A stretch of 64,000 nucleotides of DNA from an uncultured Verrucomicrobiota bacterium (GCA_964431965.1 CAYSLU010000021.1:1698-65697); one strand, 5' to 3'. Shown: positions 21,427 through 58,350, counted from the stretch's first letter. Program-made: numbers and translations. The notes: generated from the sequence alone by a model not told the origin.

Positions 21427-21455
21427 GTGGTGCCATACAGGATGAGGGGCGGGGC

Positions 21456-24644: not shown

Positions 24645-24652
24645 GGCCGGTG

Positions 24653-24682
24653 AGTATAGGGGTTGCCGTTCCATGGACGCAA
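24653..24682 (-). promoter_or_regulatory. sigma70-like promoter of the sugar transferase, probably giving a (near-)leaderless mRNA
   Basis: TTGCGT-N18-TATACT on - strand, 8 nt before the ATG at 24644, no Shine-Dalgarno. Confidence 0.5.
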
Positions 24683-24698
24683 GTCGGAGGGGCGCCAT

Positions 24699-41560: not shown

Positions 41561-42387
41561 GGCTTGTCCTCGGCCGTCGCGGCCTTCCAGTTGCAGAGCG
41601 CCTTCCAGATGGCGGCGTGGGCCTGGCGAACAACAGCCTCCGCCTGCTGCTCTTGCTGACGGCGGACGGACGCGCCATGGGTGTGGGCGAGCAGCACGAG
41701 GGTGTCCTCGTCCGCCCACACGGGCTGCCGCAGCTTGAGAAACGTGGCGATGTCGCACCGCGCATTGTTCCACTTCACTTGAAGGAACTGCCTAAAGTTG
41801 CTGACGGGGTTGCGAAAGCTGGACAGCGTCAGGCCGCGCGGGATCCAGCTGGGGTCATCGCGGGCCGATATTCGAGGGAACGCCATGGAGCGAATGTCGA
41901 TGTGCGCCGGCCGGTAGTCAACGGCGCGAGCCATGGCGGTGATCCAGACGGAGGAATCTCCGCTTTCAGACGTGAGTCGCCATGCCTGCGTCCCGTCCGT
42001 GCTCGCGTCGTCCTTGAGATTCTCAACCGTATAGCCCTTGATCTTCATGCACATGGGCATGTTGTAGCCGTGTACCAGGCGAATGACGATCGTGCCCCGC
42101 CAGCCGGAGGCCGGATGGGCGGCATAGGCGAGGAGGTTGGGGGCGGTCGGATCATGGACTTCAACTGCGATGGGCTGGAAGACCCATTCGGGAGCGGATG
42201 GCGCGAACGTTCGGAAATCGGCCGACGTCAGCTCGAACGGCTCGAACGGCCTGGAGCTGCGCTGCGCCATGATCTCCCAGAATCCGACGAGGACGACGCA
42301 TACGGCCAGCAGGATGGGGATCCGCCACGACCGTGCTGTCGTGGCTCGAGGGTCCGGGTTGCCGGGGGTGCCCGATTGAGCGCTCAT
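41557..42387 (-). CDS. EpsI-like exosortase-associated periplasmic protein
   Basis: Single N-terminal TM; HGYNMPMCMKIKGY resembles the EpsI HxPxxCxxxxGW motif; operon context. Confidence 0.55.
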   Translation of the reverse strand: MSAQSGTPGNPDPRATTARSWRIPILLAVCVVLVGFWEIMAQRSSRPFEPFELTSADFRTFAPSAPEWVFQPIAVEVHDPTAPNLLAYAAHPASGWRGTIVIRLVHGYNMPMCMKIKGYTVENLKDDASTDGTQAWRLTSESGDSSVWITAMARAVDYRPAHIDIRSMAFPRISARDDPSWIPRGLTLSSFRNPVSNFRQFLQVKWNNARCDIATFLKLRQPVWADEDTLVLLAHTHGASVRRQQEQQAEAVVRQAHAAIWKALCNWKAATAEDKP

Positions 42388-43691
42388 CAGTAGTACGCCA
42401 AGTTCAGCAGGACGATCGACACATAAATATAGATCACGCTGACGATCGAAGCGATGGTGTTTCCGACCATCACATCCCGACGCGTGTCGTAGAAGGCGGC
42501 GGTCTCCGCCGGGAGCATCTGCTGGGCGATGAGCGGGATCGAGTTGAGCAGGGCGATCAGGAAGAATATCGGGTAGACCCATGACCGGCTGAGGAAGTAG
42601 GCGGAGGCCATGAATCCGGAAAACGTGATGAGGCAGACGCCGGTGAATCGGCGCATGAACCGCTCCTCCGGGTCGCGGGGCGCGGCGAAGGCCAGACGCA
42701 CTCGCCAGCAGCCGAGAGCCCCCAGGAGCAGCAGGCCGAACCAGAACCAGTATCCGACCAAGCCGATCTCCGTATAGCACGCTACGAACGCATTGTGTGC
42801 GGCGCGGTCGCTGGCGACCGTGTAGAACATTCCGTAACCGATGCCGAACAGGACGTTGTGCTTGAAGACCTCGTTCGCCATTCCCCAGAAGACCACGCGT
42901 TCCTGGGCCGACATATCGAGCATCGCACCGCCCTTTGTTCCCGCCAGCACCAAACCAACCACGAGCATAATTCCGACGGCGCGCGGGAACACCCGCTCGG
43001 GCAGGCGGAGCAGCACGACGATGCCGCCCGCCGTGGCGAGACCGACGAGGCCGCCGCGCGAGTGCGTCGACAGGAAGGCCGGCATCAGCAGCAGGGCGCA
43101 TAGCAGGCTGCAGGCAATGAACCAGAGGACCGACATCCGGCGCGGGATCCCGAATGCCAGCGACATGGCGGCGGCCAGCACCTGCGCCATGTCGTTCGGG
43201 TCTCCGAATATCCCGAAGAACTGGGTGCGGATCTGCATCTCGCCGCTGGGCTTCGTGATGAACAAGGGCTCGCCGCCCGCGAAGCCGCTGCCGGTCTCCT
43301 GCTGTCTCAGGGCGTGTACGGCCATGATGCAGGCGCCCAAGACCAGGACGGCGGCGAACATGCGGAGCCGAGACGGGCGGTCGAGAACGCACAGCAACAG
43401 CAGCGTGAAGAAGCAGATCTTTCCCGTGTCGGGCAGCGTCTCGATGATTCCCCCGACATAGGTGTGGGGGATATGACTGAACCCGGACATGAGCCACAGG
43501 CCGAAGAGCAGGGTGATGGCGGGGGTCTTGGGGAATCGGATCTTGCCCTGCTGGATTTCCATCAGCAGCGCCAGCAGCGCCGTGTATACCACGGCATCGA
43601 GCAGGGGCCATCCCTCCAGCTGCGGGACCAGCCATTCCTGCGGTCTCCAGAAGACGAGGATGACGAAAACGATGGTGAGGAAGAACGTCAT
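42387..43691 (-). CDS. O-antigen ligase / O-oligosaccharyltransferase-like membrane protein
   Basis: GIFGDPNDMAQ, THSRGG, FGIGYG, AAHNAFV..EIGLVG. Confidence 0.82.
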   Translation of the reverse strand: MTFFLTIVFVILVFWRPQEWLVPQLEGWPLLDAVVYTALLALLMEIQQGKIRFPKTPAITLLFGLWLMSGFSHIPHTYVGGIIETLPDTGKICFFTLLLLCVLDRPSRLRMFAAVLVLGACIMAVHALRQQETGSGFAGGEPLFITKPSGEMQIRTQFFGIFGDPNDMAQVLAAAMSLAFGIPRRMSVLWFIACSLLCALLLMPAFLSTHSRGGLVGLATAGGIVVLLRLPERVFPRAVGIMLVVGLVLAGTKGGAMLDMSAQERVVFWGMANEVFKHNVLFGIGYGMFYTVASDRAAHNAFVACYTEIGLVGYWFWFGLLLLGALGCWRVRLAFAAPRDPEERFMRRFTGVCLITFSGFMASAYFLSRSWVYPIFFLIALLNSIPLIAQQMLPAETAAFYDTRRDVMVGNTIASIVSVIYIYVSIVLLNLAYY

Positions 43692-43712: not shown

Positions 43713-45137
43713 TCACCGAACGTAGCGCTCCATGCCGAACAGCACGATGCGCGTGGTACGGAGAATGATCTGCAGATCCAGCGGGATCGACAGATTCTTG
43801 ATGTAGTACATGTCGAATTCAAGCTTGCGGCGGGCATCTTCGAAGCTGCTTCCGTATGGGTACCGAATCTGGGCCCATCCCGTCAACCCGGGCAGCACGT
43901 TTTCGCGCTCGCGATAGTAGGGGATGCGCTTCTCCAACTCGGCCACGAGCTCCGGGCGCTCCGGCCGGGGCCCCACGATGCTCATGTCGCCCCGGATCAC
44001 GTTGATCAGCTGAGGCAGTTCATCCAGCCGGAACCGCCTCAGCACGTGGCCGATTCGAGTGATGCGAGCGTCGTCGGCGGGCGACCACATCACGCCGGAT
44101 TGCGCCTCGGCCTGGTCGACCATCGTCCGGAACTTGTACATGCGGAACGGCGCGCCGAACCGACCGACCCGGATCTGGCTGTAGAGGATCGGACTGCGGG
44201 GTGCGCTGAGCTTGAGGGCGGCCGCAATGACGAGCGCGAGCGGGACGGCCAGAGCGCCGCCGACGAACGACGTGACGAGATCGACGAAGCGCTTGATGCG
44301 GGAGGTCACCGGCGTCGCTGTCGCCATGCAGGCCTCCGTCAGCCATGACTCGTCGATCAAGTCGAGCGGGATGCGTCCGTTGTATATCTCGGTGGCGTTC
44401 AGGGCGTTGAGAACGAGGACGCCTTCGAAGCGCAACCGACGCAGCTGGGGGTAGATCAGGGCCGCGCGTTCCTGAGGCTCGATTCCGATGATGATGACCT
44501 GCACTCCGAGGCTGCGGAGGACGTCGGTCAGCGTGTCCGGCTGGACGTGTATTGCTGCGACACGGTCGATCGTTTCGCTGGGGGCGGTGGCGGCGGTGCG
44601 CCGGTCTGTCAGGCTGATGAAGGCGGACACGCGATGGATAGGCCGGATGAACTCGTTCTCGACCATCTGTCGGATGCTGGTTGCCAGCTCGCCGGTGCCG
44701 ATGACTGCAACGCGGTAGGCGAACATCGGGCTGCGCAGGATGAAGCGGTAGAGCGCGACGGTCATCAGCAGCCAGAGAAGGGAATAGATGCCCATCGCCA
44801 GCAGCAGGGTGCCGCGGCCGAGCAGCGTTTGAAACCAGGCATACGACGTCATGCTGACGATCAGGATGGCCACCAGGAGCGAGAAGGCCCAGTTCACGAC
44901 CAGGTTGAACCGCGACACGCGGAGCTGGATGCCGTATGTGCCGGCGATGTAGTTGACCAAAACGATGCTGCCGCAGAAGAAGAGCCAGCCGTCGAGTCGG
45001 TCGATCAGGTAGCCAGGAAGGGAGTCGAGGCCGAATCGGATGGTGATTCCGGAGATGACGCCGACGGCTAGGCAGAAGGCGTTGAGAAGCGCCATCCAGA
45101 GGGTCTGCCCGCCGAGGTGATCGCGCGAGACATTCAC
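43713..45137 (-). CDS. Priming sugar transferase of PEP-CTERM/EPS type; GTG start at 45137 preferred (ORF extends to 45203)
   Basis: FRMYKFRTM, DARITRIG, RLDELPQL, VGPRPERP, PGLTGWAQIRYPYG, KLEFDMYYIKN. Confidence 0.92.
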   Translation of the reverse strand: MNVSRDHLGGQTLWMALLNAFCLAVGVISGITIRFGLDSLPGYLIDRLDGWLFFCGSIVLVNYIAGTYGIQLRVSRFNLVVNWAFSLLVAILIVSMTSYAWFQTLLGRGTLLLAMGIYSLLWLLMTVALYRFILRSPMFAYRVAVIGTGELATSIRQMVENEFIRPIHRVSAFISLTDRRTAATAPSETIDRVAAIHVQPDTLTDVLRSLGVQVIIIGIEPQERAALIYPQLRRLRFEGVLVLNALNATEIYNGRIPLDLIDESWLTEACMATATPVTSRIKRFVDLVTSFVGGALAVPLALVIAAALKLSAPRSPILYSQIRVGRFGAPFRMYKFRTMVDQAEAQSGVMWSPADDARITRIGHVLRRFRLDELPQLINVIRGDMSIVGPRPERPELVAELEKRIPYYRERENVLPGLTGWAQIRYPYGSSFEDARRKLEFDMYYIKNLSIPLDLQIILRTTRIVLFGMERYVR

Positions 45138-45139
45138 GG

Positions 45140-47434
45140 TTACTCCGTCGGGAGAAACGTTTTCCGGATCCAGCGCATGGCTGAACGTCGGCGTGAATCC
45201 CACTTGCGGTCTCGCGGCGTCCGGCGTCCGGTGACGCCCGCCTCGTCATGAAGATAGTAGTCGTACCCGTATGCGTACGCGTAGCTGTAGTATGCGTAGT
45301 TCGGATACTGGTAGGCATAGTACAGGCTGCTGATGCGGTGCATTTCGATGCTGTTGACGATCAGCCCGATGACGTGCGCGTCCTCGAGCATGTCGATCGA
45401 GTAGCGGATCGTGGACTTCGGGGTCCGGTTGGCATGGGCCACGTAGATTACGGAGCACAGCTGCGGGGAAGCCAGAATCACCGTGTCCGTTATGCGCAGA
45501 ACCGGCGCGCTGTCCATGTAGATCACGTCGAACTCCTCGCGGGCTTCTGCGAGGAAGGCCCGCAGATCGGCCGAATGCAGGAGCTCCGCCGTGTTCTTAT
45601 GGGGCGTACCGGCAGGCGCGAACCAGAGGTTGTCGAAGGCCGTCTTCGCTATGACGTCGCGGAGCGGGCGTTTCTCCTTGAGCATGTCGGTGATCCCGGG
45701 GCTGCGCTCGCGGTCGAGCGACTTGTGCAGCACGCCGCGGCGAAGATCCGCGTCCATCAGCAGCACCTTCCGCCCGGTTCGAGCGGTCATGATGGCCAGG
45801 TTGAGCACGGTGAGCGTCTTGCCTTCCTTGGAGTCGGCGCTGGTGAGCAGGGCCACCTTCTGCCCGGCCTTCTCGAGGGCCGAGATCACGTTTGTGCGGA
45901 GCGCGCGATACGCCTCGGCGGCGCCGGTCGAATGCTCCTCGCTGACGATCGGCCGAATGCGGCTGTGCAGCCCGCTGTGCACCCAGTACGGGACGCCGCC
46001 GAGGAATGGGACGCCGATGAGCGATTCGACGTCGGTGATGGACTGGACCTTGTTGTCGAGCACGTGCGTCAGCAGGGCGAGCCCGAAGCCCGACCCGAGT
46101 CCGGCCATGAGGGTGACCAGCAGGATCTTGAGGGGATCGGGCCAGATCGGCCGGCCGCTGGACCCGATGTCCTCCGCGACCAGGAAGTGCTCGCTCTTGA
46201 GCTCCTCATCGACCTTGAGCTCCTGCAGGCGCGAGTACAGATTTTGGTACATGCTCTCGATGCGGGACACGGCCAGCGAGAGATGGCGCAGGTCCGACTG
46301 CTTCCGGCTCGCCATCAGGTAGGAATCCTGCCAGCGCCGCTCGGCTTGGGCCAGCGCCTCGGATTGGATCGTCAGGGCCTTGCGCCGGGACTTCAGCCGC
46401 TCAAACTCCACGGTGGCGGAGAAATCGAGTTGGCCCTTCATCTCGGCGATCTTGCTCTTGACGGCCTGGATCTCCGGGTGCTCCGGACGGAGCGTCTGCG
46501 TCAGCTCCTGCTCGCGCTGCTGCAGCCGCATCAGCTGGACGCGCAGATCCTGGTAGCGTCCCAGCTCCTCCAAGCGCGAATCCAAGTCGTCTGTTCGTGC
46601 CGGCTGGTCCCGGACTCCGGCCTCCGCGAGGGCCTTGTCGCGGGCGGCTCCGGTCAGCGGCTCGTTCGGCGGGGCCACCGCGCCGGTCTCTCGCGTGAGG
46701 GTATTGACGTCGCGGATCACAAACAGGTCCTCGCCCTTCAGGCGGGGAAACTGGGCGTCGAGCATGTAGATCTCGGAGTTGAGCTGCTGCTGGCGAGACA
46801 TCAGGGCACCCAGATATCCGCGCTCCAGCGACGCCTTGTTCTCGACGTAGGCCATCTGGTGGAGGCGCTCGTATTCCACGACATCCTCTTCGGCCGAGCG
46901 GATGCGATCGCTCAGGCGATCCAGCTCTTCCGAGAGCACGGAAGTGGCCGAGGAATAGGACTCGCGCTTGACGTTGTTGATCTCCTTCTGAAACTCGTCA
47001 AGGAGGGTCTGGAGGAACGCCTGCCCGTAGTGAGGGTTCGTACTCCGCGCGGTGATGGTGATCATATTCAGCGCGCGATCGATGTAGATGTTGACTCCCA
47101 GCCAAAGGGCCGCCTCGCTGCCGACCTCCCGGGCCCAGCGCTCCCGGAGCAGTTGCACCACGCGGACGCGCATCCGCGTGCTGGTGAGAAAGTGGTTATA
47201 CATGTTCATGTTTCGCCACATTTCGCCCTGGTTGGATACCGAGAGGGTCGGGTCGCGATACATCATGACCTTGCAGCTCGCGAGATACTCCTTGGGAACG
47301 ACCTCGAGGTAGAGCACCCCGCCGAGCAGGCAGTACAGGAAGCACACCATGATGAGCTTCCAGCGGAAGAACAGGATGGCGAAGTAGACCCGTGGGTCGA
47401 GCTTCTGCTGTTCCTGCCGTGGAGTAACGGGCAT
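45140..47434 (-). CDS. wzc: Wzc-type polysaccharide co-polymerase / BY tyrosine kinase
   Basis: Two TMs around coiled coils, EAYRALRTN, TSADSKEGKT, DADLRR, DSAP, C-terminal Tyr cluster. Confidence 0.9.
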   Translation of the reverse strand: MPVTPRQEQQKLDPRVYFAILFFRWKLIMVCFLYCLLGGVLYLEVVPKEYLASCKVMMYRDPTLSVSNQGEMWRNMNMYNHFLTSTRMRVRVVQLLRERWAREVGSEAALWLGVNIYIDRALNMITITARSTNPHYGQAFLQTLLDEFQKEINNVKRESYSSATSVLSEELDRLSDRIRSAEEDVVEYERLHQMAYVENKASLERGYLGALMSRQQQLNSEIYMLDAQFPRLKGEDLFVIRDVNTLTRETGAVAPPNEPLTGAARDKALAEAGVRDQPARTDDLDSRLEELGRYQDLRVQLMRLQQREQELTQTLRPEHPEIQAVKSKIAEMKGQLDFSATVEFERLKSRRKALTIQSEALAQAERRWQDSYLMASRKQSDLRHLSLAVSRIESMYQNLYSRLQELKVDEELKSEHFLVAEDIGSSGRPIWPDPLKILLVTLMAGLGSGFGLALLTHVLDNKVQSITDVESLIGVPFLGGVPYWVHSGLHSRIRPIVSEEHSTGAAEAYRALRTNVISALEKAGQKVALLTSADSKEGKTLTVLNLAIMTARTGRKVLLMDADLRRGVLHKSLDRERSPGITDMLKEKRPLRDVIAKTAFDNLWFAPAGTPHKNTAELLHSADLRAFLAEAREEFDVIYMDSAPVLRITDTVILASPQLCSVIYVAHANRTPKSTIRYSIDMLEDAHVIGLIVNSIEMHRISSLYYAYQYPNYAYYSYAYAYGYDYYLHDEAGVTGRRTPRDRKWDSRRRSAMRWIRKTFLPTE

Positions 47435-47446
47435 GAGGTATGTGTC

Positions 47447-48631
47447 TTAGAAGAGGCTGAGGTGCCGGGCGGGCACGATGATCTTATCGCCGTTCTCGAG
47501 CGCGACGTCGTCTTCGGTCCGGCCTTCCTTCATGAGCACGTCTGCATTCCCCAGAATCTCGGTTTCGACGCCGTTCTTGTCCCGCCGGACGATTCGGATC
47601 GAATCCCCCTTGGCGAACGGAGGCAACCCCCCGATCTTGAAGAGCAGGTACATGAGGGTGCAGGGCTCCTCCGCGGCGAACCGAACCACTCCGGGATTCT
47701 TGACTTCGCCCAGCAGCAGGATGTGCTTCTCGCCCATCGGCCCCTGCACGCGGTTCTCGTACGAGAACACGTGGATGATGTCGTTGTTCTGCAGGAACAC
47801 CTGGGGAATGTTGGGTCGCCCCTTGTCGTCGACCAGCGCCACGCTCTCGCCCGGCGCGGCCACTTGAAACGGTGAAAGCATGCCGCCGCGCACAATCTTG
47901 ACGCGCGCGTTGTTGGCCTGGGGGCGGAGTCCGCCGGCCCGCAGCAGCGCCTCGTGGAGCGTGATCGACGACCCGGGGCCGATCTTGAGCGTACCCGGGC
48001 GGAGCACTTCCCCGCTGATCCCGACCTTGTCGTATGATGCCTTCGCCATGCGGACGGTCACGGTGGCCTTTCTCAGATAGCGGCTTTCGAGCACGCTCCG
48101 AATTTTGGCGGCCACCTGCTCGACGGTCATGTCATGGAGCGTCACGAGGCCCACGTACCCGAAATCGATCGCCGAGAAATCGTTGACGGCGTAGCGCCCG
48201 GTGAGGCTGGGATCCTCTTCGACGGTGATCTGCAGCACGCTGTCGGGCTGAACCGTCACAGGCCCCGACTCGCTCGGCTGTGCTTCGTCGGCCGGCGCCT
48301 GCAGGGGCGGTTCCTCTCCGGCGGGCGGGGGTGGCGAGGCTGGAAGGCGAGGCGCTGTGCCCGGCGTGGCCGCGAGGGGTGGGGCGACACGGGCGGCAGC
48401 GGTTGCCGGGGTGACGGAAGGAGCCAAAGCCGGGGGCGTCGATGCGGACGATGTGGGTGTGGCGGCTGGAGCGCCCGAGTTGTTGGCGGCCGCCTCCTCC
48501 TGCAGGATCTGTGCGATCAACTCGTCCGTCCGGCGCGAGGACGCACATCCGCCGCCCAACCAGCCGGCCAGCGCGGGGGCCATGAGAAGCGCAATCGCCA
48601 CGCGCAGGCAACGGTTGGACTGCGTTTTCAT
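47447..48631 (-). CDS. Wza/OPX-type polysaccharide export lipoprotein with SLBB domains
   Basis: Lipobox GGGC, Pro/Ala-rich linker, poly_export motif, GEV..PG SLBB repeats, LENGDKIIVP. Confidence 0.85.
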   Translation of the reverse strand: MKTQSNRCLRVAIALLMAPALAGWLGGGCASSRRTDELIAQILQEEAAANNSGAPAATPTSSASTPPALAPSVTPATAAARVAPPLAATPGTAPRLPASPPPPAGEEPPLQAPADEAQPSESGPVTVQPDSVLQITVEEDPSLTGRYAVNDFSAIDFGYVGLVTLHDMTVEQVAAKIRSVLESRYLRKATVTVRMAKASYDKVGISGEVLRPGTLKIGPGSSITLHEALLRAGGLRPQANNARVKIVRGGMLSPFQVAAPGESVALVDDKGRPNIPQVFLQNNDIIHVFSYENRVQGPMGEKHILLLGEVKNPGVVRFAAEEPCTLMYLLFKIGGLPPFAKGDSIRIVRRDKNGVETEILGNADVLMKEGRTEDDVALENGDKIIVPARHLSLF

Positions 48632-48714
48632 GGAATACTTCCAGCCGCCCCGCAACCTGCGGGGATCCGCCATTTCCTCACCAGCTGCCAAATCGAGCCA
48701 ACTGTAGCAAACAA

Positions 48715-48790: not shown

Positions 48791-51700
48791 TCACCACAGC
48801 CGCCGCAACGTGCCGGACTGCTCGTCCACCCGTCGGATGAGATCGCGCGCCCTCAGGTCCGCCAGCGCGGAGCGGGTTGCGTCCCGCTGGATCCGTTCGA
48901 GCGTCCGGCGAGCCTCTTCATACCGCCCGAGGGAGAACTGGATCTCGGCGGCGTTGATGTTCATTTCGGCCCAGGCGTAGTCGCCCTGCCGTGCCAACTT
49001 CAGCGCCCGCGTCATGTACTGCTCGGCCTTGGATGGCGCGCCGGATCGGAGGAAGACGACGGCGGCCGTGTCCAAGGCCGCAAAGCTGTTGCTCCCGATG
49101 GTGACCAGGCGATCCACCAGCTGGATGGCGCGCGGCGTCGTCCGGGGCTCCTGAGCCAGGCAGTAGACGAGGTTGTTCAGCACGCTCAGCTCGTTGGGAT
49201 ACTTCGCGTAGGCCGTCTCGAGAATGCGTAGTGCCTTGTCGGACTTTCCCTCGAGCCGGGCGGCTTCGGCCGCCAGCAGCAGCGTCCTCAAGTGGACGTC
49301 GGCTCCGCCCTTCTGGACGGCTGCATCCAAGACGGCCACGGCCCGCTCCCTCTGTCCCTTCGAGAAATAGACATCCCCCAGCTGCTCGGCCCACTGGTTT
49401 TCGTTGGGGTATCGCTGGCTCAGGCTTTCCAGGGCGGACACCAAGTCCTGGTCGAGCGATCGCTCCGCGGTCTTGATCCCGACGATCACGCGATAGAACG
49501 GCCATGGTTCGTCCGCCTCGCCCGCTCCAGCCTGCGCGCACGAGAGGGCCCACTTGTTGTCCCGGACAGCCAGGGCACAGCGCAGCCCCAGCATGTAGGC
49601 GGGCAGCATTCCCCGTCCGTTGGCGATGGAGTTGCTGGCGGCCAGGCAGGCCGCGTTGGTCATCCCGTTCCTGAGCAGGAAGTCCCCGGCTCGCACCATC
49701 GTGCCGGGAGAGAACCGCGTCCCCGCGATGGCTCCCCCGATCTCCCGGTCGGCCCATGTCCCGGCGCCGTCCGCGCGGGTCTTGGCCACGAGGTGAGCGA
49801 GCCAGACCTCGGAATCCTGGGGGCACAGCGTGCGCGCGGACTCCACGACGTCCTTCCGTCCCCCGGTGAGCGCGATCAGGATCCGGTGCAGCATGCTGGA
49901 ATGGGGGCAGAGCTCGGCGGCCCGCGCGGCGGCGCCCCGTGCCTCGTTCACCCGTCCGGCGCCGGCCAACAGCATGGTCAGCTCGTTCAGCGCCACGGCT
50001 TGTTCATAGGAATTCCGTCCGATCGACGTCCATCGCGCCAGCTCGGATGACGCGCCCTCGGCTTTCCCGGCCAGCCACTGGCGCCGGATCGCGTACAGAT
50101 TGGTCAGGAACGGGCTGGGAACGCCCGCCTCCGGCCCCGGAAGCCGGTTGCGCTCGTACTGGGCTTGGACGGCGGTGCGGTTGGTGGGGCCCTGCCAGGC
50201 TACGGTCCACTCCGCCGGCGGCAGGAACAGCGTCTGCGGTCGCCCGTCGGTCGAGGGGAGCTTCACGCCGCCGGCCGCTTTGGCCATCTGGGCGGCGGCC
50301 CGATAGCGCTGGGTCTCGAACAGCAGGCGTGCCATGACGGGAGCCCGCTCAACGTCCGGCAGGCGGCTGGTGAGGAAGAGGGCTTCCTCCTTGAATCCGT
50401 AGAAGTCCCATATGGCGCTGATGGCCGACCGGACCTGATCGGAGTCTGGCAAATCCCGCTGGAACCGCTCTGCGATCGTCATGGCGTAGACGCCCATCTG
50501 CAGATGGAGCAGGCAGTTGACCATCCGAAGCCCGGCGGCCATGTCGAGTTCGTCGTCCTCTCTCTGGACCTCGTGCAGCGCCTCGTAGGCGGAGGGCCAC
50601 GCCTGGGTCTTTTCGTACAGCCCGACCTGCTCCTGCAGGATCTCGCGCCGCTTGCCCGGGTACCGAGCGGCCAGCTTGGACACGCGCTCGAGCGCGTCGT
50701 CGATCCGCCCCGCCATCTCCAGCACCATGGGGTACGCCATGTCCATGCGGGGCGTGAGCGTCCCCGTTTCCTCCGCCTTTCGGAGCTTGGCCAGCGACTC
50801 GTCCACGTACCGGCGCCGGATGTCCGTCGATCCGTCCTGGGCGATCTCATGGCCGTGCGGCATGCGGCTCCAGATTCCGCGCCAGGGCGAGAGATTCCGC
50901 GTGAGCCGGCAGAACGACGAGAGGTTGATCGTATCCGTGTCGGTGTCCGCCTTCAGGTTCAATGCCTGGCGCCGCATCAGGAACCAGCTGTCGGCGAAGC
51001 GCGCCGGAACGAGCGGCAGAGCGAGATCCTCCGGGGCCTTCGACTGGATCCGGCAGTAGGCCAGCCATGCGAGGTCGGGGCGGTTCAGGGCGAAGGCCGA
51101 GTCGATGATCCGGGTCAAGTCCTCGACGTCGGTCTGCCGAAGGCTGGCCTTGAAGGTCTCGGCGAACAGCGCCTCCCACTCCGGGCCCTGCCGGAGCATC
51201 GCCATCGTGAGCATCGCGTTGAGGAAGAGCGGTTCGCGGGGCCAGGACTTGATGCCCCGGCGCAGTGCTTCGGCGGCGCCGCTGCGGTCGTTCATGCGCA
51301 GGCCGGCGGCGAACGAGATGGCGGCATGAAGCGGCTGGCGGTATGGGGTTACCCCGTCCGACTTCCATATCGCCCGCCACTTGTGCCGCGCGGCCATGTA
51401 GGGAAAGAGCGCGCGCACGCGTTCCTGCAGGAGGTAGGACTGGGCGGCCTTCGTGACGTTGGCTTCCACCACGTCCGCCTGGTCGGATGCAGCGCCGAGC
51501 TCGGCCAGGATCATGGCCACCGTGGGCCAGTTTCGAGTGTCCTCCGGGAGGTCCGAGATGACCTGCAGCGCCCGGGCCGTCTCGCCCAAGCCGCCGAGGG
51601 CCTGGGCCTCGACCACGCGGTCGTCCATCGTGCGCTTGTCCGGCGGGATGCGGCGGATCTCGACCAGGGCCTCCGTGAACTTGCGCCGCTGGACGAGCAC

Positions 51701-52831
51701 ATTGAGGCGGTCCTGCTTGAGCGCGGCGTTGTCCGGAGTCAGGCGCAGGGCCGCCTGAATGGCCCGCTCCGCGGCCTCGGGATTGGTGAGCAGCAGCTCC
51801 TCGGCCGCCGCGCGGATCATTTCCACGCGGTGGCTGGGCCGCAGTTTGTACGCCACGGCGGCGACGGCCACCGCGGCGACGGCGATCACGGTGGCCGCCG
51901 CTGCGCTTCGCGAGAGCACGGTCCAGAAGCGGGGAATGCGCGACGCCCTGTCCCGGGGCTCCTGGTCCCCGGCGCGCGAGGCCCGCTGGCGCAGGCGCGC
52001 GTCCGTTCGCCAGCGCTTCCAGAACGATGCCTCGAAGTGGATGGCCACTACGCTGACCACCAGGAGCACGCCCAGCGAGTCGTGCAGGAAATTCGTGGCC
52101 CACTCCTGCGGCATGTTGGCTCCGACCTTCACCATGACGAACACCCGCACGATGTTGAGCACCAGCACCTGGGCCAGGCCCGCCGCCGCCACGCCGACGA
52201 TCTCTGCCGCCTTCAGCCGTAGCAGCATGCCGACGCCCACCCCGCACAGGAGAACCGTCACGGCCGTCCGCATGCCGCTGCACTCCTCCGGCACCATGAA
52301 CGACCGGAAGCCGGTGTGCAGGAGCAGCCCGTCGGCCCAGACCCGGACGTTGACGGTGTGCAGCAGCGCGCCCGCCCCGATCACCGACAGGCGTTGCATG
52401 GCGAGTTCGAGCGGGCCGAACAGCTGGCCGGGCAGGGGATGGACCCAGTACAGAATGATCAGTGCCCGCGCGATGTCGCCGCCGAACCGGGCGGGGAGCG
52501 ACCAGCGCATGCAGGAGAAGAGGAGCAGCAGGAGCCCCAGCCACTCGAACTGCCGGACATCGAAGACGATGGCCAGGATGACGAGCGCGGCCCCGCCGAC
52601 CCCGGCCGGGAGGACCAGCCGGTCCGAAATCACCAAGTCCGGAGCTTCCGGCTTGGGGCGGAGCAGGATCAGGGCGGAGAACAGGAAGCCCAGGGTGAAC
52701 CGCAGGATCCCGTTGGGATCACCCGTTACCCGGGCGAAATTCACCCAGAACCAGAGGGCAAACAGCATGGCCGCCAGAACGAGAACCGAGCGCTGGGGGG
52801 ATAGGGCGGTGCGTGCCATGAAGCCGCTCAA
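48791..52831 (-). CDS. Exosortase domain fused to about 1000 aa of TPR-like helical repeats
   Basis: N-terminal about 8 TM with VPEECSGMRT, LNIVRV, FLHD; extra TM; TPR-like segments e.g. IQAALRLTPDN, VLNNLVYCLA, ALDTAAVVF, LGRYEEARR. Confidence 0.85.
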   Translation of the reverse strand: MSGFMARTALSPQRSVLVLAAMLFALWFWVNFARVTGDPNGILRFTLGFLFSALILLRPKPEAPDLVISDRLVLPAGVGGAALVILAIVFDVRQFEWLGLLLLLFSCMRWSLPARFGGDIARALIILYWVHPLPGQLFGPLELAMQRLSVIGAGALLHTVNVRVWADGLLLHTGFRSFMVPEECSGMRTAVTVLLCGVGVGMLLRLKAAEIVGVAAAGLAQVLVLNIVRVFVMVKVGANMPQEWATNFLHDSLGVLLVVSVVAIHFEASFWKRWRTDARLRQRASRAGDQEPRDRASRIPRFWTVLSRSAAAATVIAVAAVAVAAVAYKLRPSHRVEMIRAAAEELLLTNPEAAERAIQAALRLTPDNAALKQDRLNVLVQRRKFTEALVEIRRIPPDKRTMDDRVVEAQALGGLGETARALQVISDLPEDTRNWPTVAMILAELGAASDQADVVEANVTKAAQSYLLQERVRALFPYMAARHKWRAIWKSDGVTPYRQPLHAAISFAAGLRMNDRSGAAEALRRGIKSWPREPLFLNAMLTMAMLRQGPEWEALFAETFKASLRQTDVEDLTRIIDSAFALNRPDLAWLAYCRIQSKAPEDLALPLVPARFADSWFLMRRQALNLKADTDTDTINLSSFCRLTRNLSPWRGIWSRMPHGHEIAQDGSTDIRRRYVDESLAKLRKAEETGTLTPRMDMAYPMVLEMAGRIDDALERVSKLAARYPGKRREILQEQVGLYEKTQAWPSAYEALHEVQREDDELDMAAGLRMVNCLLHLQMGVYAMTIAERFQRDLPDSDQVRSAISAIWDFYGFKEEALFLTSRLPDVERAPVMARLLFETQRYRAAAQMAKAAGGVKLPSTDGRPQTLFLPPAEWTVAWQGPTNRTAVQAQYERNRLPGPEAGVPSPFLTNLYAIRRQWLAGKAEGASSELARWTSIGRNSYEQAVALNELTMLLAGAGRVNEARGAAARAAELCPHSSMLHRILIALTGGRKDVVESARTLCPQDSEVWLAHLVAKTRADGAGTWADREIGGAIAGTRFSPGTMVRAGDFLLRNGMTNAACLAASNSIANGRGMLPAYMLGLRCALAVRDNKWALSCAQAGAGEADEPWPFYRVIVGIKTAERSLDQDLVSALESLSQRYPNENQWAEQLGDVYFSKGQRERAVAVLDAAVQKGGADVHLRTLLLAAEAARLEGKSDKALRILETAYAKYPNELSVLNNLVYCLAQEPRTTPRAIQLVDRLVTIGSNSFAALDTAAVVFLRSGAPSKAEQYMTRALKLARQGDYAWAEMNINAAEIQFSLGRYEEARRTLERIQRDATRSALADLRARDLIRRVDEQSGTLRRLW

Positions 52832-54303
52832 AACTCGTGCGTGTACGTCAGCAGCGCCCAGAACGTGTCGCGCGTGAACGCGATCCCGTCATTGTCGCTG
52901 AATCGCTCGGCGTGTTCGACCGAGAGCGAAAGCGATAGCTCCTTTGCGAGCTGGAACGCGAGCCCCACGCTGCTCACCCACGTGCTGTAGTCGGTACTCA
53001 AGGTCGGGTCGGTGAGCAGCGAGGAGAGGGCGGCGGAGTTGGTCGATAGCGAGGAGGACGAGTCATTGTGGCGGACGTCGTAGGCCGTCGCCCCCAGCAG
53101 ATCGACTCGCTTGGAGAGTGGATGCGTAGCCGAGCCCCCGACGCTCATGGTCGAGTACCCGGGCAGGTCGGTGAGCTGCGGATCGGCCTGCGTGTAGCGG
53201 GCGAAGGCGCTGGCGGCCAACCGGTCGCTGGCCCAGCTGATGTCGTAGCCGACCGACGTGTCGATCTCCACCGCGGTCCGGAATCCGCCGGACTGGCTGC
53301 GGCTGGCGTTCAGCCCGTGGCTCAGGTTCTTGGACAGCTGGGTCTTCAGACCGGCGGAGCCGGTGAGGGCTTCAGACGACCCGCTGTCCTCGCCCGGTCC
53401 GGGCGAGATCAGCCCGTAGATCGAGTAGCCGATGGCGCCGCTCAGCCTCGTGCGCTCAGTCGGCGACAGCCCCGTATTGACCTCGTAGTTCTGGCCGAAT
53501 ACGTTGCCCCGGTCGGCGGCCGGGTAGATGCCGTAGGTGTAGCCGGCGCTGACGCCGACCACCCAGACGGGGTTCACCTGCCACTGGTAGGTCTGGCTCT
53601 CGGCGTACGTCGTGCTGCGCACGTCTTCAAAGCGGCTGCCGAGCGGAATCACGTCGCCGCGGGTCGCCGATAGCGCCAGGCTCTGATCGGAGGCCGTGAG
53701 CCAGTCCAGGTCCAGCCCCAGAAGATTGTCGAAATGCTCGTATCTCCGGCCGCCGTACAGATCGATCATGCCCCGGGAGTCAATGTAATCGATCCGATAC
53801 GTCGGGCGGTCGTATACCCGCCCCCTCACGTTCGGCGCGAGCTGGAATTGCAGGGCGAAATCCCCCGTGATGCCGGAGCCGGGCGGGGTGATGAAGAAGC
53901 CGCCGTCCTGAGTGCCCAGGGGATAGTACTCGTAGCCGACGGAAATGGAGGCCTCCAGGTCCGTGTGCCGGTTAATCATGAGGTAGTTGCGGAACGACAT
54001 CGTCGAGATGAGCGGAATCTCGGAGCCGTCTTCCGTGATCTGGCCCCGCCCCTCGCCCCGGATGGCATCCGTCTGGGCCTGGGTGGATCGGCTGTAGCGA
54101 TAGCCCGCGGTCTGGGTGAACGTCCAGTTCGAGTAGAACGGTCCCAGACGGAAGGTGGCATAGTCGGGAATTCCGACTTCCCGGTAGTTCGTATAGCGCA
54201 GGCTTTGGGCATGGGCGGCCCCGGCGGAAGCCATCAGAAGGCTGCCGAGCATCAGGCTGGCTGCGCCCGACGGTCGGCCGCGCCGCTGGGAGGCGATGTT
54301 CAT
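52828..54303 (-). CDS. Outer-membrane beta-barrel associated with EPS export
   Basis: Signal peptide (AHA|Q), alternating beta-strand pattern, C-terminal YTHEF beta-signal. Confidence 0.75.
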   Translation of the reverse strand: MNIASQRRGRPSGAASLMLGSLLMASAGAAHAQSLRYTNYREVGIPDYATFRLGPFYSNWTFTQTAGYRYSRSTQAQTDAIRGEGRGQITEDGSEIPLISTMSFRNYLMINRHTDLEASISVGYEYYPLGTQDGGFFITPPGSGITGDFALQFQLAPNVRGRVYDRPTYRIDYIDSRGMIDLYGGRRYEHFDNLLGLDLDWLTASDQSLALSATRGDVIPLGSRFEDVRSTTYAESQTYQWQVNPVWVVGVSAGYTYGIYPAADRGNVFGQNYEVNTGLSPTERTRLSGAIGYSIYGLISPGPGEDSGSSEALTGSAGLKTQLSKNLSHGLNASRSQSGGFRTAVEIDTSVGYDISWASDRLAASAFARYTQADPQLTDLPGYSTMSVGGSATHPLSKRVDLLGATAYDVRHNDSSSSLSTNSAALSSLLTDPTLSTDYSTWVSSVGLAFQLAKELSLSLSVEHAERFSDNDGIAFTRDTFWALLTYTHEF

Positions 54304-54404
54304 CTTGATCCTTACGAACGCGCAGCCCCATGGCTGCGCCCAACCCGTATACCCTCAAACGCTATCACGTCACGCCGCCGTCCTTCCACGAAAAAAGCGG
54401 GTTC

Positions 54405-55818
54405 TGTCGTGTAGCATTTGAACTTTCCGTTCTGCGTGCGTTGAACGTTCCGTGCGTGCGTTGAAGTTTCCGCGAGGGGTCAGATGGTCCAGAAGGGGGC
54501 GTGGCGCTTGTACGAGCACAGCAAGATGGGTTTACCGCCAGTGCGGGGTTCATTGGCGAGGAAGGATACCGTGCCATCGGGATGGTCGCATCGCAGGACC
54601 CAGGAGTTGAACCGCGGCCCCAGCTTGACCTTGGTCGTATCGAGGCTCACGCAGCCATCGAGACCGACGCGGACGCGCTGACGTACCGACCAGACGTACT
54701 TCCACCAAGGGTCCTTGCGGCAGGGACGCAGGAGGCAACGCCCCTCCCGTTTGGCCCGCCGCCAAGCGGTGTTGGGTGTCATCTGGAGTTCGCGGTGTAT
54801 TTCCTCCTGATTGTGATGATGGCGCAGGTCGTCGAGAGGCGGATTGGCCGGTTCGATCTCTCCGATGGCGTGAGCCGCAAAGAAGCTCGGCAAGCGGTTC
54901 TGCCAGAACTGATGCTGCTGTTCGATCTTGCCATTGGCTTGGGGCGTGGGAGCCGGCTTCAACGTCACGTCATAGCGCCGGAGTGCCTCAGCCAAGTACG
55001 TCATGCTGTCGGGGATCTTGGAGAAGAAGAAGCTGTGGTGGTCCACGTATAGGGCCAACGGCAGCCCATACTCCTCAAAGGCGCGGGGCAGGAAATCCAT
55101 GTACGCCAGCAGGCATTCTCTCGGGTAGAGCCGGGCGCCCACGATCACGCGACTGCAGTCATCCACCATGTCCAGCAACGGATACAGGCGATCCTCTTGC
55201 CCAAACCAGTGGTGGGGTGTTGCATCCAACTGCCAGAGGGCACCAAGTTCCGCACATTGCCACCGCCGGATCGGCCCTGAACTGGTCTTCTTGGGTGGAC
55301 CCGCATGCGCACAGCCCTGCTGCAACGCCCAGCGTCGGACCGTGGCCCGATCCGTGTGGAACTGATGCAGCCGCAAAGCCTCGGAGGCGCAGAACGCATA
55401 GGGCGCCGCAGGCCGGACTGTCAGCATCTTGCGCCACAGCGCTTCGACGGAATCGGGAATCTGGCGCTGGCGATTGCCTCCTGACTTGCCAGGACCCCAT
55501 TCATCCGTTCGGCCGTCGGCACAGGCCTGCAGGTACCCGTGGTACAACTGCCGCACGCGCCGTTCACTCACCCCCACTTCCGTCGCCACCTCCCGGGCCG
55601 TGATGGCTCCCGTTCTTAGTTGGCCCATCAGATGCCGCACGTGCCCGGACCCCACTCGCCCCATCAGTTGAACGTAGTTCTTTTCATCATCCCATCCTAT
55701 CTCTCCCGCCCATATCCCTCCACGCTTCAAGCGGAAAGTTCAACGCACGCATCCGGAACCTTCAACGCACGGGGGGAAGCTTCAACGCACAGACGGAAAG
55801 TTTGTTCGCACCACGACA
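54405..55818 (-). mobile_element. Complete insertion sequence, IS1202/IS481-like, 1414 bp
   Basis: Ends TGTCGTG...CACGACA; 16-bp direct repeat CGAAAAAAGCGGGTTC at 54389-54404 and 55819-55834; repeated GTGCGTTGAAnnTTCC motifs inside both ends. Confidence 0.92.
54480..55664 (-). CDS. DDE transposase (HTH + rve integrase core); start uncertain (ORF open to 55730)
   Basis: GVSERRVRQL HTH, WQLDATPH, DDCSR, YGLPLALYVD, PQANGKIE. Confidence 0.9.
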   Translation of the reverse strand: MGRVGSGHVRHLMGQLRTGAITAREVATEVGVSERRVRQLYHGYLQACADGRTDEWGPGKSGGNRQRQIPDSVEALWRKMLTVRPAAPYAFCASEALRLHQFHTDRATVRRWALQQGCAHAGPPKKTSSGPIRRWQCAELGALWQLDATPHHWFGQEDRLYPLLDMVDDCSRVIVGARLYPRECLLAYMDFLPRAFEEYGLPLALYVDHHSFFFSKIPDSMTYLAEALRRYDVTLKPAPTPQANGKIEQQHQFWQNRLPSFFAAHAIGEIEPANPPLDDLRHHHNQEEIHRELQMTPNTAWRRAKREGRCLLRPCRKDPWWKYVWSVRQRVRVGLDGCVSLDTTKVKLGPRFNSWVLRCDHPDGTVSFLANEPRTGGKPILLCSYKRHAPFWTI

Positions 55819-55820
55819 CG

Positions 55821-55853
55821 AAAAAAGCGGGTTCGGCGCCGCGGGCAGGCGCC
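55821..55853 (-). terminator. Probable intrinsic terminator of the GT-C gene, also the IS target site
   Basis: On - strand after the stop: GC-rich stems (GGCGCC..GGCGCC or GCGG..CCGC) followed by TTTTTT. Confidence 0.45.
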
Positions 55854-57428
55854 TCAGTTGGCGTCGCGTCGTCCCAGAATGCGGAGGACGGTCGCCGCCT
55901 GCCCGAAGCTCGGAACATCCCGGACGGGGCGGTAGACCCGGAGCACCTCGCCCCAGAGCCGGTCCTGCTCGGACTGCGGGAGCTCCGCGACCGCCGGGCA
56001 GGAGATCGACAGGCTGTACCCGCTCAGGGCCGCCACCGGCGCGCCCGCGTCCCGGATCAGGGCGAGCAGCATTGGGGTGTTGACCACGTGCACGCGCTGG
56101 CACCGGTCATCCGACCACCCCGGGTAATAGCTGAAGGGGCCCAGCTCCAGGCCGGACGGGACCCGCCGGTTCGCTTCCACCGCCAGGTACATGTCCTGCG
56201 TCAGGATTCGATCCGCCGGCTCCGTCATTCCCCGTATCCCGGCGGCCACGCGCTGCAGCTTGCGCAGCGGGGGCTCGTCCTTGAGCCGCCACCAGATGCG
56301 ATCGCGGCCCTGGATGAACCAGCCCTGATTGATGGGGGACGAGCACGCGGCGGCGATGCTCGCGAGCAGGACGGCCGTGCAGATCCACGCCCGCACGGGG
56401 CCGCTCCCCGCGCCGCGGAACACAGCCAGCGCGAGGGCGACGGCAAAAAGGGGAAACGCCATCACCTGGTAGTCTTCGTACGGCACCGGTGCGGCTATGT
56501 GCACGGCGGTCAGCGCGGCCGCGGCCGCCCACAGCGCTCGCGGCAGCCACGGCGCCGGGGACTCGTCCGGTTCCCCGGCCACCCGCGAAAGGCCAAATCC
56601 ACGCGCCAGCACCAGGACGGCCCAGAGAGCGGCGGCGACGAAGTACGCCTGGACGAGCCGGGATATGAACCCGGCCTTGTAGACCAGCATCTGCATCGGA
56701 GCCCCGCCGTCCCGCGACGTATGATAGGTGAGCAGGCCGAAGAGGAACCCGTCGGGCGCGGCCAGCAGGAACGGCCCGAAAAGCGCCGCCGCCCCGGCCG
56801 CTGCGCCCGCCGCGAACCCCGCCGCCGCCGGCCACCGCTTCCGCCCGTCCGCCGCCATGAGGAGGAAGACCACGGGCAGGACGATTCCGGCCGAAACGCG
56901 CGTTGCGGCCGCGGCCATCATGGCGGCGCCTGCCCCTGCGGCGGCTGGCACGGCCCAGCGCTTCCCGCGGACGGTCAGCAGCAGAAAGCCGCCGGCCAGC
57001 ATGAGGCTGGACAGCGAGTAGGTCTTCACGACGGTCGTGTAGTAGCTGTGATAGACGTTGACCGCGATCAGGGAGAAGGCCGCCGCGGCTACGAACGGCC
57101 GCGCCGGGCCCGAGGCGAGCCGGCCCGCCAGCCATGCGGCCAAGCCGGCGGCCGCCAGGCCCATGATGGCCGTGAAGAGGCGCCCGCCCGCCACTCCCCA
57201 CGCATCAACCAGTGGGGCGGCCAGGGCGTAGGCATAGGCCATGAACGGGCCTTGCGTGAAGGCGAAATCGCGGTAGGGGACCTGCCCGTCCGCGACGAGC
57301 CGGGCCGCGTACAGATACCAGCCCTCGTCCTGGTTGAGATCGCCCAGGTACAGGTTGGCGGCGGACAGCGCGAGGGCCGTTCCGGCGGCGGCCGCCCACA
57401 GCCCGATCATGAGTGCCTTGCGCGGCAT
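55854..57428 (-). CDS. GT-C fold (ArnT/PMT-like) membrane glycosyltransferase
   Basis: NQDEGWYLY..GQVPYRDF..QGP after TM1, about 11 TM, periplasmic C-domain. Confidence 0.75.
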   Translation of the reverse strand: MPRKALMIGLWAAAAGTALALSAANLYLGDLNQDEGWYLYAARLVADGQVPYRDFAFTQGPFMAYAYALAAPLVDAWGVAGGRLFTAIMGLAAAGLAAWLAGRLASGPARPFVAAAAFSLIAVNVYHSYYTTVVKTYSLSSLMLAGGFLLLTVRGKRWAVPAAAGAGAAMMAAAATRVSAGIVLPVVFLLMAADGRKRWPAAAGFAAGAAAGAAALFGPFLLAAPDGFLFGLLTYHTSRDGGAPMQMLVYKAGFISRLVQAYFVAAALWAVLVLARGFGLSRVAGEPDESPAPWLPRALWAAAAALTAVHIAAPVPYEDYQVMAFPLFAVALALAVFRGAGSGPVRAWICTAVLLASIAAACSSPINQGWFIQGRDRIWWRLKDEPPLRKLQRVAAGIRGMTEPADRILTQDMYLAVEANRRVPSGLELGPFSYYPGWSDDRCQRVHVVNTPMLLALIRDAGAPVAALSGYSLSISCPAVAELPQSEQDRLWGEVLRVYRPVRDVPSFGQAATVLRILGRRDAN

Positions 57429-58053: not shown

Positions 58054-58350
58054 CTGCCTCTCCTGGCCCGGCGCCGGCCGGCGGGTTGCTTCAAATCGGT
58101 CGCGTACACTATCATGGCCCGGTTGCGGTTCCAAGAGCTACGCGGCGTGAACGGCACGGGTGTCAGTGATGGGCGGGTCGGAACGGCGGAGACCGCCGGT
58201 CTCCACGGAACGAGGCCAAGCGGGCTCGCTTGGAGCCGGCCGTCCCCGGCCGGTTCGGGCTCCTTCCCCCCTCCCGACACGGGCCCAGTGCAGAGAGCGG
58301 CCGGAAGGCGGGCGGCCGATACGCCAGGCCTCCGGCGGGGGAGGACGGCC

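Follow-up and report, generated by a model that had tools for sequence, protein, structure and literature searches.

An exosortase fused to a long TPR-type arm and inherited with an outer-membrane barrel in uncultured Kiritimatiellae-type bacteria

The stretch of DNA considered here (64,000 nucleotides of an uncultured Verrucomicrobiota bacterium, GCA_964431965.1 CAYSLU010000021.1:1698-65697, hereafter the window) carries on its minus strand, at 48791..52831, a gene whose product joins an exosortase to a long region resembling tetratricopeptide repeats (TPRs). An earlier interpretation made from the DNA only (hereafter the sequence-only reading) had pointed out this combination, and the observation is confirmed. 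The fusion is a real, conserved and uncharacterised membrane enzyme of uncultured Kiritimatiellae-type bacteria. It is proposed here, with a probability of roughly 0.55, that it unites in one chain an XrtA-like exosortase and a PrsT-type TPR protein, and that it works with a co-inherited outer-membrane beta-barrel, within an exopolysaccharide export locus, on PEP-CTERM cargo.

The membrane domain of the fusion (residues 24–266; 52034..52762, minus strand) matches the Exosortase_EpsH family of Pfam (PF09721; 81.4 bits for a cut-off of 25.7) and the exosortase/archaeosortase signature of NCBIfam (TIGR04178; 37.4 bits for a cut-off of 23). The motifs EECSG (residues 182–186), NIVR (226–229) and LHD (249–251) all lie where the sequence-only reading had placed them, within the first ~270 amino acids (aa), and contain the exosortase triad Cys184, Arg229 and His250 (codons 52280-52282, 52145-52147 and 52082-52084, minus strand). 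These three residues, previously described as intact-looking, are invariant in all 35 aligned homologs (30–49% identity to the query). The hydropathy of the family and the helices of an AlphaFold2 model indicate a core of about eight predicted transmembrane helices with the triad on one membrane face. Judged from its sequence, the domain is a divergent exosortase, i.e. a putative Cys/Arg/His membrane transpeptidase-like enzyme belonging to the exosortase/archaeosortase superfamily. The possibility that the architecture already belongs to a named subfamily found no backing, as no Xrt subfamily model of NCBIfam reaches its cut-off on the fusion. The best is XrtA (TIGR03109; 52.4 bits for a cut-off of 208); the other scores, each given with its cut-off, are XrtD 46.2/400, CrtC 32.1/225, XrtW 31.4/425, XrtV 28.2/313, XrtJ 27.3/200, XrtB 26.6/275, XrtT 22.9/250, XrtH 22.8/86, XrtN 20.3/200 and XrtC 16.7/300. 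No solved structure matched the membrane domain in a PDB sequence-profile search with the profile of the fusion family.

The whole protein is encoded by a single open reading frame (ORF) with its stop codon at 48791-48793. Read from a TTG (52831-52829) it has 1346 aa, and from an in-frame ATG (52819-52817) 1342 aa. The TTGA overlap with the upstream barrel gene that had been reported is present in the DNA, where this TTG overlaps the barrel stop codon TGA (52830-52828); the ATG, 8 nucleotides (nt) past that stop, is nevertheless the more likely start and agrees with a 100%-identical database entry of 1342 aa. Whichever start is used, the two genes are tightly packed. A database search found 98 relatives of the fusion among 8000 scored candidates. 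All but one of them (97/98), mostly 1300–1420 aa long, carry both PF09721 and TPR families, and the remaining one is labelled partial; the named relatives are entries called 'archaeosortase/exosortase family protein' from metagenome bins of Kiritimatiellae, Lentisphaerae or Verrucomicrobia. The fusion was detected in 10 of 401 genomes sampled from the phylum and in 91 of 401 sampled from the class (50 of 162 genera), and in the class genomes nearly all of the matches listed are single open frames. When shorter proteins were searched with residues 1–335 for an unfused version, six hits were obtained, none clearly stand-alone (five on contigs of 808–2705 nt and one labelled partial). An assembly artefact or a gene usually split in two is therefore ruled out by the 97 fused relatives, by the 91 class genomes and by the absence of any clear stand-alone form among these hits, and the single chain described earlier holds.

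A tree of 37 family members taken from fetched loci has two clades, one containing the window gene and the other a paralog of ~1360–1490 aa that many genomes carry in addition to a window-type copy. None of the 16 fetched paralog loci has a barrel gene or polysaccharide genes nearby, and most paralog-bearing genomes also hold the window-type copy together with a barrel.

Beyond the exosortase core, a basic loop (residues 272–307; 51911..52018, minus strand) is predicted to be cytoplasmic from its Lys+Arg content (mean of 9.3 per sequence in 35 homologs) and is disordered in the AlphaFold2 model at model positions 287–295. It leads to a ninth transmembrane helix (about residues 308–327; 51851..51910, minus strand), the further helix of the sequence-only reading, which appears as a hydropathy peak of 2.08 centred on residue 318 in the family alignment and as model positions 297–325 (residues 301–329) in AlphaFold2. 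No hydrophobic segment lies C-terminal to it. The rest of the chain (residues 330–1346; 48794..51844, minus strand) is an all-alpha TPR-like solenoid of ~1017 aa. Pfam TPR families match residues 338–454 and 1149–1329, and the middle of this arm, outside the Pfam matches, resembles TPRs only in its fold and through weak profile hits to TPR/HAT proteins. The AlphaFold2 model, built from 21 sequences, covers residues 5–1190; it is entirely helical, with a mean predicted local distance difference test score (pLDDT) of 86.0 and with hairpins from the ninth helix to its end. A Foldseek search with this 1186-aa model returned only generic long TPR proteins (template-modelling scores of 0.10–0.18). 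By general TPR geometry, and not from the model, about 27 helical hairpins could in principle span the periplasm if extended. Many Trp, Pro and Arg residues along the arm are invariant in the 35-homolog alignment. Its C-terminal block (residues 1131–1314; 48890..49441, minus strand) is PrsT-like, as it matches positions 723–897 of the 899 positions of the PrsT model TIGR02917 with 70.4 bits (cut-off 312.2); positions 1202–1325 of the fusion family profile match PA4667 (PDB 7rqf and 8sxe; E 2.5e-16), the best solved match of the C-terminal TPRs.

The orientation of the arm can be deduced from the core. In the AlphaFold2 model, Cys184 stands before model helix 183–199, Arg229 ends helix 204–233 and His250 stands before helix 249–283, while the basic loops 58–70, ~107–119, 205–210 and 272–307 are on the face opposite the triad and two membrane passes separate His250 from the arm. 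According to the relevant passages of Haft et al. 2006 (PMC1569441), the PEP motif of exosortase cargo is on the periplasmic side of the cargo's own C-terminal helix, and the triad face should therefore be periplasmic. Combined with the two passes after His250, this makes it very likely that the TPR arm lies in the periplasm and argues against the cytoplasmic location that had been considered earlier. The description of PrsT as a lipoprotein in the same passages (PMC1569441) fits a periplasmic arm.

The gene directly upstream of the fusion (52828..54303, minus strand) encodes an outer-membrane beta-barrel. This protein of 491 aa has a signal peptide, the C-terminal sequence ...THEF and about 20 strands; 20 long ones are seen in an AlphaFold2 model built from 17 sequences (pLDDT 82.9; predicted template-modelling score, pTM, 0.78). 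Two fold searches rank barrels of TonB-dependent receptors and general porins (18–22 strands) at the top, with template-modelling scores of 0.35–0.51 and Z scores of 12.5–16.4, and AlgE, BcsC, PgaA and Wzi are absent among the best 50 matches of these searches. Neither an NCBIfam model nor a PDB sequence profile matches the barrel at E up to 1, and the Pfam family OMP_b-brl matches it below threshold only. The matches of the predicted fold are generic for a large barrel and point to no known family. TIGR03016 (pepcterm_hypo_1), which we take to be an outer-membrane protein of PEP-CTERM systems, gave no match to the barrel at E up to 1 by hmmscan, and a genome-wide search with this model missed the barrel gene.

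The barrel is a dedicated partner inherited with the fusion. In a set of 20 loci around the best window-type relatives, it lies directly upstream of the fusion and on the same strand in 17; of the three other loci, one ends 137 nt past the fusion start and two (L010 and L018) have other neighbours. The barrel stop and the fusion start are -5 to 104 nt apart (median 23.5 for 18 pairs including that of the window). A profile of the barrel family detects it in 85 of the 401 class genomes. Both genes are present in 84 of these 401 genomes and neither in 309, while 7 carry the fusion without the barrel and 1 the barrel without the fusion. The barrel-only case is a 142-aa fragment at a contig end, and the seven fusion-only genomes include three with a paralog-level match only and three whose fusion is cut by a contig end; G432, G467 and G581 match the window protein at ~33% identity, i.e. 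at paralog level, and have no barrel match. The co-occurrence is seen even when the two genes are on different contigs and spans 49 genera. Synteny and co-occurrence thus bear out the dedicated barrel partner of the sequence-only reading, whereas the pore role that it assigned to this partner stays conjectural.

Just after the signal peptide, residues 33–58 of the barrel (~54130-54207, minus strand) form a highly conserved segment of low model confidence, in which Q33, P46, A49, G54 and S58 are invariant in 17 barrel sequences. An extended conserved peptide of this sort is the kind of ligand bound by TPR grooves.

The fusion family is linked genomically to classical PEP-CTERM proteins, with few such proteins per genome. 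Among the 401 class genomes, 355 hold an exosortase domain. In G644 and G497 (both 93% complete), G568 (82%) and G652 (74%), all exosortase-domain matches are in fusion-type frames of 1029–1391 aa, and G528 has the fusion type plus one extra short exosortase-domain match. Four of these five genomes contain one or two PEP-CTERM matches over cut-off (TIGR02595 has one match in G644, two in G497 and one in G652), and none of the five has a VPDSG match. In a control, a PEP-CTERM match is absent from four of five genomes without an exosortase match. Stronger evidence comes from the paralog clade, where in 12 of the 16 loci the fusion directly adjoins a gene for a signal-peptide protein of ~246 aa whose tail consists of a '...DNF.L.VPEP' motif, a hydrophobic helix and an Arg/Lys end. 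TIGR02595 is listed for all eight members of this family that were tested, three of them over the 16-bit cut-off and five at 13.6–15.6 bits. Members of this family, accompanied by a longer relative without the tag, also adjoin the fusion in two loci of the 20-locus set mentioned above, L010 and L018, which have no barrel and whose enzymes nest in the clade of the window in the tree.

This longer relative (317–405 aa) is often found beside the ~246-aa protein and ends in a conserved '...YFYR..VE' domain. It is encoded at L031:14117-15184, L032:12957-14174, L034:6181-7203, L038:13162-14127 and L041:6180-7133, and also at L010:12790-13785 and L018:5568-6572. By tblastn, the '...YFYR..VE' C-terminal domain has many copies across the genome of the window.

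The genome of the window (5.1 Mb in 165 contigs, 85.8% complete) contains three exosortase genes, namely the fusion, a generic one accompanied by a DUF3485/EpsI gene (window 20859-23227) and an XrtC-like one on contig C19. Pfam and TIGRFAM models detect one PEP-CTERM protein in it, and it has no homolog of the ~246-aa PEP-CTERM family. A scan of its protein tails for a hydrophobic stretch followed by a basic end found about eight VPDSG-like tails and one PEP-CTERM tail, and no new recurrent C-terminal signal; two of the VPDSG-like tails directly adjoin the XrtC-like gene. The region C19:19963-26168 carries on one strand the two VPDSG-like cargo genes, the XrtC-like exosortase gene (C19:23244-24287; 209 bits, below the XrtC cut-off of 300) and a gene for a PrsT-type TPR lipoprotein of 1076 aa (C19:19963-23193). 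The latter begins 50 nt after the exosortase gene, has its own signal and Cys, and passes the PrsT model (320 bits summed). The fusion represents in one chain an arrangement that is also present in this genome in the form of two separate genes. As the sequences of the two TPR proteins have little in common, the fusion is not a recent join of the C19 pair. The architecture, which the sequence-only reading did not recognise as characterised, is thus less isolated than had been thought.

The closest known arrangement is the XrtA/EpsH-EpsI-PrsT system. Haft et al. 2006 (PMC1569441), in the passages concerned, report that genes for PrsT, which carries a lipoprotein signal, are near or adjacent to the exosortase gene, and that canonical XrtA genes also lie in polysaccharide loci. 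The fusion shares with this system the exosortase fold, the triad, a long TPR partner, the PEP-CTERM link and a polysaccharide locus with Wza-like, chain-length/kinase, priming transferase and ligase-like genes. It differs from it (PMC1569441) in that the TPR part is fused through an extra transmembrane helix instead of being a separate lipoprotein, that no EpsI is found at the fusion locus by hidden Markov models (HMMs), and that the barrel lacks a TIGR03016 match. PrsK and PrsR did not turn up among the scanned locus genes, although no search was aimed at them. With PrsT itself, the arm has in common its size (899 model positions; 1076 aa for the protein of the window's genome), TPRs in the periplasm (very likely so for the arm), a gene next to, or here joined with, that of an exosortase, and the C-terminal block; unlike PrsT, it matches only the last ~175 model positions and has no lipobox or lipoprotein signal of its own, as it follows the ninth helix in one frame and is anchored by the membrane helix of the enzyme.

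Other systems resemble the fusion in part. XrtD, XrtJ, XrtT and XrtW (models of 472–522 positions) likewise combine in one chain an exosortase core, a further transmembrane segment and a periplasmic partner domain, presumably EpsI-like, but this extension is of ~200 aa and not a TPR region of ~1000 aa, and their models score far below cut-off on the fusion (46, 27, 23 and 31 bits, respectively). PA4667 of Pseudomonas aeruginosa, which is presumably LbcA, the partner of the processing protease CtpA, is comparable as the best solved match of the C-terminal TPRs and as the partner of a periplasmic processing protease; it is however a separate lipoprotein of 540 aa, and its protease is a soluble serine enzyme, not a membrane Cys enzyme. 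AlgK/AlgE, PgaA, BcsC and PelB belong to synthase-dependent pathways, whose TPR part is either a lipoprotein or joined to the barrel in one chain. They resemble the present case in that an exopolysaccharide locus links, at the genetic level, a TPR solenoid of the periplasm with a barrel of the outer membrane. Here, in contrast, it is a sortase of the inner membrane that carries the TPR region, and the locus encodes Wza and Wzc together with a Wzy_C-type protein and a priming phosphotransferase; no synthase gene appeared among the scanned locus genes. The comparison with AlgK/AlgE, PelB and BcsC made in the sequence-only reading is useful as an analogy only.

Taken together, the following scheme can be proposed for the fusion. 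Its active exosortase would cut the PEP-CTERM sorting signal borne by secreted proteins, so that, on the outer side of the inner membrane, a few PEP-CTERM proteins would lose their C-terminal anchor through the action of the membrane domain. The chain would then continue through the eighth helix, the cytoplasmic basic loop, one more transmembrane helix and the ~1000-aa periplasmic TPR solenoid. By analogy with other TPRs, this tethered arm may bind and hold cargo, partner proteins or both in the periplasm, and the barrel of ~20 strands would provide the outer-membrane end of the same pathway, possibly in physical contact with the arm. The fusion would work within an export locus encoding a GT-C-like protein, Wza, Wzc, a priming transferase, a Wzy/ligase-like protein and possibly EpsI. 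The barrel might let through cargo, glycan, or cargo to which glycan has already been attached; since Wza already gives a channel for polysaccharide, we lean towards a barrel serving protein cargo or surface anchoring. The hand-off device imagined earlier thus survives as one chain with a triad and a probably periplasmic arm, whereas the contact between TPRs and barrel and the travel of cargo or glycan along the arm are still suppositions. That the fusion and the barrel would constitute a complete envelope-spanning sorting machine, in which the sortase cuts, the arm carries the cargo and the barrel is the outer-membrane translocon, seems rather doubtful.

Several points weigh against the one-chain XrtA/PrsT proposal. 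In the AlphaFold2 model of the fusion, the pTM of 0.57 makes the relative placement of the domains unreliable. The first 15 residues after the ninth helix are also basic, so that the positive-inside argument has to draw on the exosortase core and not on this helix alone. The TPR region is only weakly similar to true PrsT (70 bits against 312) and shares with the PrsT-like protein of its own genome 28% identity over 103 aa (BLASTP, E 5e-4). The genomes compared are related and not independent, so that the counts of co-occurrence with the barrel overstate the number of independent events. As to the cargo, none can be assigned to the fusion in the 85.8%-complete genome of the window, because this genome has two other exosortases, a single PEP-CTERM protein and VPDSG-like tails beside the XrtC-like enzyme. 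By the tail scan, none of the 20 window-type loci encodes a C-terminally tagged protein, and the PEP-CTERM neighbours in L010 and L018 were detected by homology only. G568, whose only exosortase found is of the fusion type, has no PEP-CTERM match (82% complete). Finally, G426 (96% complete) has 15 PEP-CTERM matches and no exosortase-domain match at E up to 1e-5, which makes the logic of PEP-CTERM profiles leaky. In this last genome, the exosortase gene could be missing from the assembly, or a different sortase could be in use.

It is possible, although not favoured, that the arm, tethered to its enzyme, would act only as adaptor or regulator, in cargo recognition or in control of the active site, with the barrel serving polysaccharide or other traffic. 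Such a role would parallel that supposed for PrsT in XrtA systems and that of the TPR lipoprotein PA4667 (LbcA) with the periplasmic protease CtpA, and it is in line with the PrsT-like C-terminus and with PA4667 as the solved structure that best fits the C-terminal TPRs. The whole arm is retained in the paralog clade, none of whose 16 loci has a barrel gene nearby, and the paralog-level proteins of G432, G467 and G581 come without a barrel match; the arm therefore has a function that does not need a barrel in cis. However, most genomes that carry the paralog also carry the window-type copy and its barrel, and the barrel family is accompanied by the fusion in 84 of 85 cases and is encoded directly upstream of it, not beside Wza and Wzc. 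The tight gene pairing would also suit an arm that is an assembly factor of the barrel, in the manner of the periplasmic chaperones BepA and BamD, with the barrel as client and not as docking site. The weak similarity to BepA (18.5 bits) that could be invoked here is generic TPR similarity, and a chaperone leaves unexplained both its fusion to an exosortase with intact triad and its retention in the barrel-less paralog loci, so that this role appears highly improbable.

If the window-type enzyme no longer sorted proteins, its membrane domain and arm could act on polysaccharide, for example by anchoring or releasing the polymer that the adjacent Wza, Wzc and priming-transferase genes produce. 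All the genes downstream of the fusion are polysaccharide genes, the 17 barrel-type loci do not encode any cargo in the tail scan, and few PEP-CTERM proteins are detectable in the genome of the window. Yet polysaccharide loci are also the place of canonical XrtA genes (PMC1569441, in the passages cited above), the Cys/Arg/His triad is invariant, genomes with the fusion as sole exosortase type still have PEP-CTERM proteins, and two members of the window's own clade, those of L010 and L018, adjoin PEP-CTERM genes. An action on polysaccharide is thus unlikely.

No published description of an exosortase–TPR fusion was found in the openly licensed papers of PMC and in bioRxiv, as far as their main texts go. 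The fusion represents an exosortase subfamily without a name, characterised by a PrsT-type partner joined to the enzyme and constantly accompanied by an undescribed barrel family. The route of exosortase cargo from the inner membrane to the cell surface has been a matter of hypothesis since the system was first described, and an envelope-spanning machine, if true, would identify the missing step of the field, i.e. the passage of PEP-CTERM proteins to or through the outer membrane. The fusion family offers a simpler handle on this route: the enzyme comes with its TPR partner in a single polypeptide, one barrel family follows it through 49 genera, it is the sole exosortase type of some genomes, which have just one or two candidate cargos, and in the sister clade a cargo gene is adjacent to it. 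Partner, cargo and route are therefore testable with few constructs. For annotation, the gain is a definable exosortase subfamily as well as two accessory families without a name, those of the barrel and of the ~246-aa PEP-CTERM protein.

The neighbours of the fusion are those described in the sequence-only reading, with the barrel upstream and Wza-like and Wzc-like genes downstream. In the relatives, the gene order is p524, barrel, fusion, Wza-like, Wzc-like, priming glycosylphosphotransferase, sometimes a Wzy_C/ligase-like gene, and p276; among the 20 loci, the Wza-Wzc-transferase set occurs in 10, p524 in 7, p276 in 7 and the Wzy-like gene in 4, these counts being lower bounds as several loci end at contig ends. 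When the downstream genes are compared with NCBIfam, families of the XrtA system rank first or nearly so, all matches but those to general families being below cut-off. All of the following genes are on the minus strand. The Wza-like polysaccharide export protein (47447..48691) has the Pfam domains Poly_export and SLBB and a sub-cut-off match to TIGR03027 (pepcterm_export, 85 bits). The Wzc-like gene (45140..47434) encodes a chain-length determinant fused to a tyrosine autokinase; TIGR01007 matches it over cut-off (122 bits), and TIGR03018 (132.5 bits) and TIGR03007 (72.7 bits) below theirs. The priming polyprenyl glycosylphosphotransferase (43713..45203) has a Bac_transf domain and a match over cut-off to TIGR03025 (341 bits), and scores 340.5 bits against a cut-off of 393 with TIGR03013, the XrtA-system type. 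The Wzy_C/O-antigen-ligase-like membrane protein (42387..43691) passes the Pfam model Wzy_C (42.2 bits) and matches TIGR03097 (38 bits) below cut-off.

Two membrane proteins at the borders of this locus are more divergent. The last gene, p276 (41557..42387, minus strand), encodes a membrane-anchored periplasmic protein that had been called EpsI-like. Neither NCBIfam (E up to 1) nor Pfam (E up to 0.1) gives a family match for it, PF11984/EpsI models included, alignment of its family with the window's own EpsI by hhalign gives a probability of 0.15, and a PDB sequence-profile search returned three chance-level hits only (E 0.033–0.65). Language-model look-alikes nevertheless associate it with DUF3485/EpsI clusters (score 0.96), and it may be a very divergent EpsI. 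On the other side, p524 (55854..57428, minus strand), a polytopic membrane protein encoded upstream of the barrel in 7 of the 20 loci, has no Pfam HMM match and no PDB sequence-profile match at E up to 1; its language-model look-alikes, to be taken as a lead only, carry PMT_2/PMT domains (GT39-type GT-C), and p524 is likely a GT-C glycosyltransferase of the PMT_2/GT39-like type. The next gene, p219 (57475-58134), was considered as a part of the system and rejected, since its conserved phosphoribosyltransferase (PRTase)-type motif makes it look like a neighbour with a housekeeping function, similar to orotate phosphoribosyltransferase.

Between p524 and the barrel gene, ~100 nt upstream of the barrel start, an insertion sequence (IS) of ~1412 bp (54405..55816, minus strand) has been inserted in the short spacer and interrupts an otherwise conserved adjacency. 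Its transposase ORF (54480-55730) matches ISNCY and IS481 transposase models; it has terminal inverted repeats and is flanked by an 18-nt perfect direct repeat (54387-54404 and 55817-55834). The element is single-copy in the assembly, its terminal inverted repeats being multi-copy, and it is missing at the matching position in the seven related loci with p524. It does not belong to the fusion-barrel system. Its insertion may uncouple the barrel and fusion genes from an upstream promoter.

The window also contains a second, ordinary exosortase system (20859-23227, plus strand), in which the generic exosortase gene is followed by the DUF3485/EpsI gene. This exosortase matches TIGR02602 with 170 bits, its domain occupying residues 252–489 of a 512-aa ORF whose start is probably over-called. 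Around this system lie glycosyltransferases and another priming transferase (23178-24698, minus strand). A protein of 1185 aa with only weak GATase1-like/ThuA matches at its N-terminus is encoded at 24699-28256 (minus strand), between the two polysaccharide loci.

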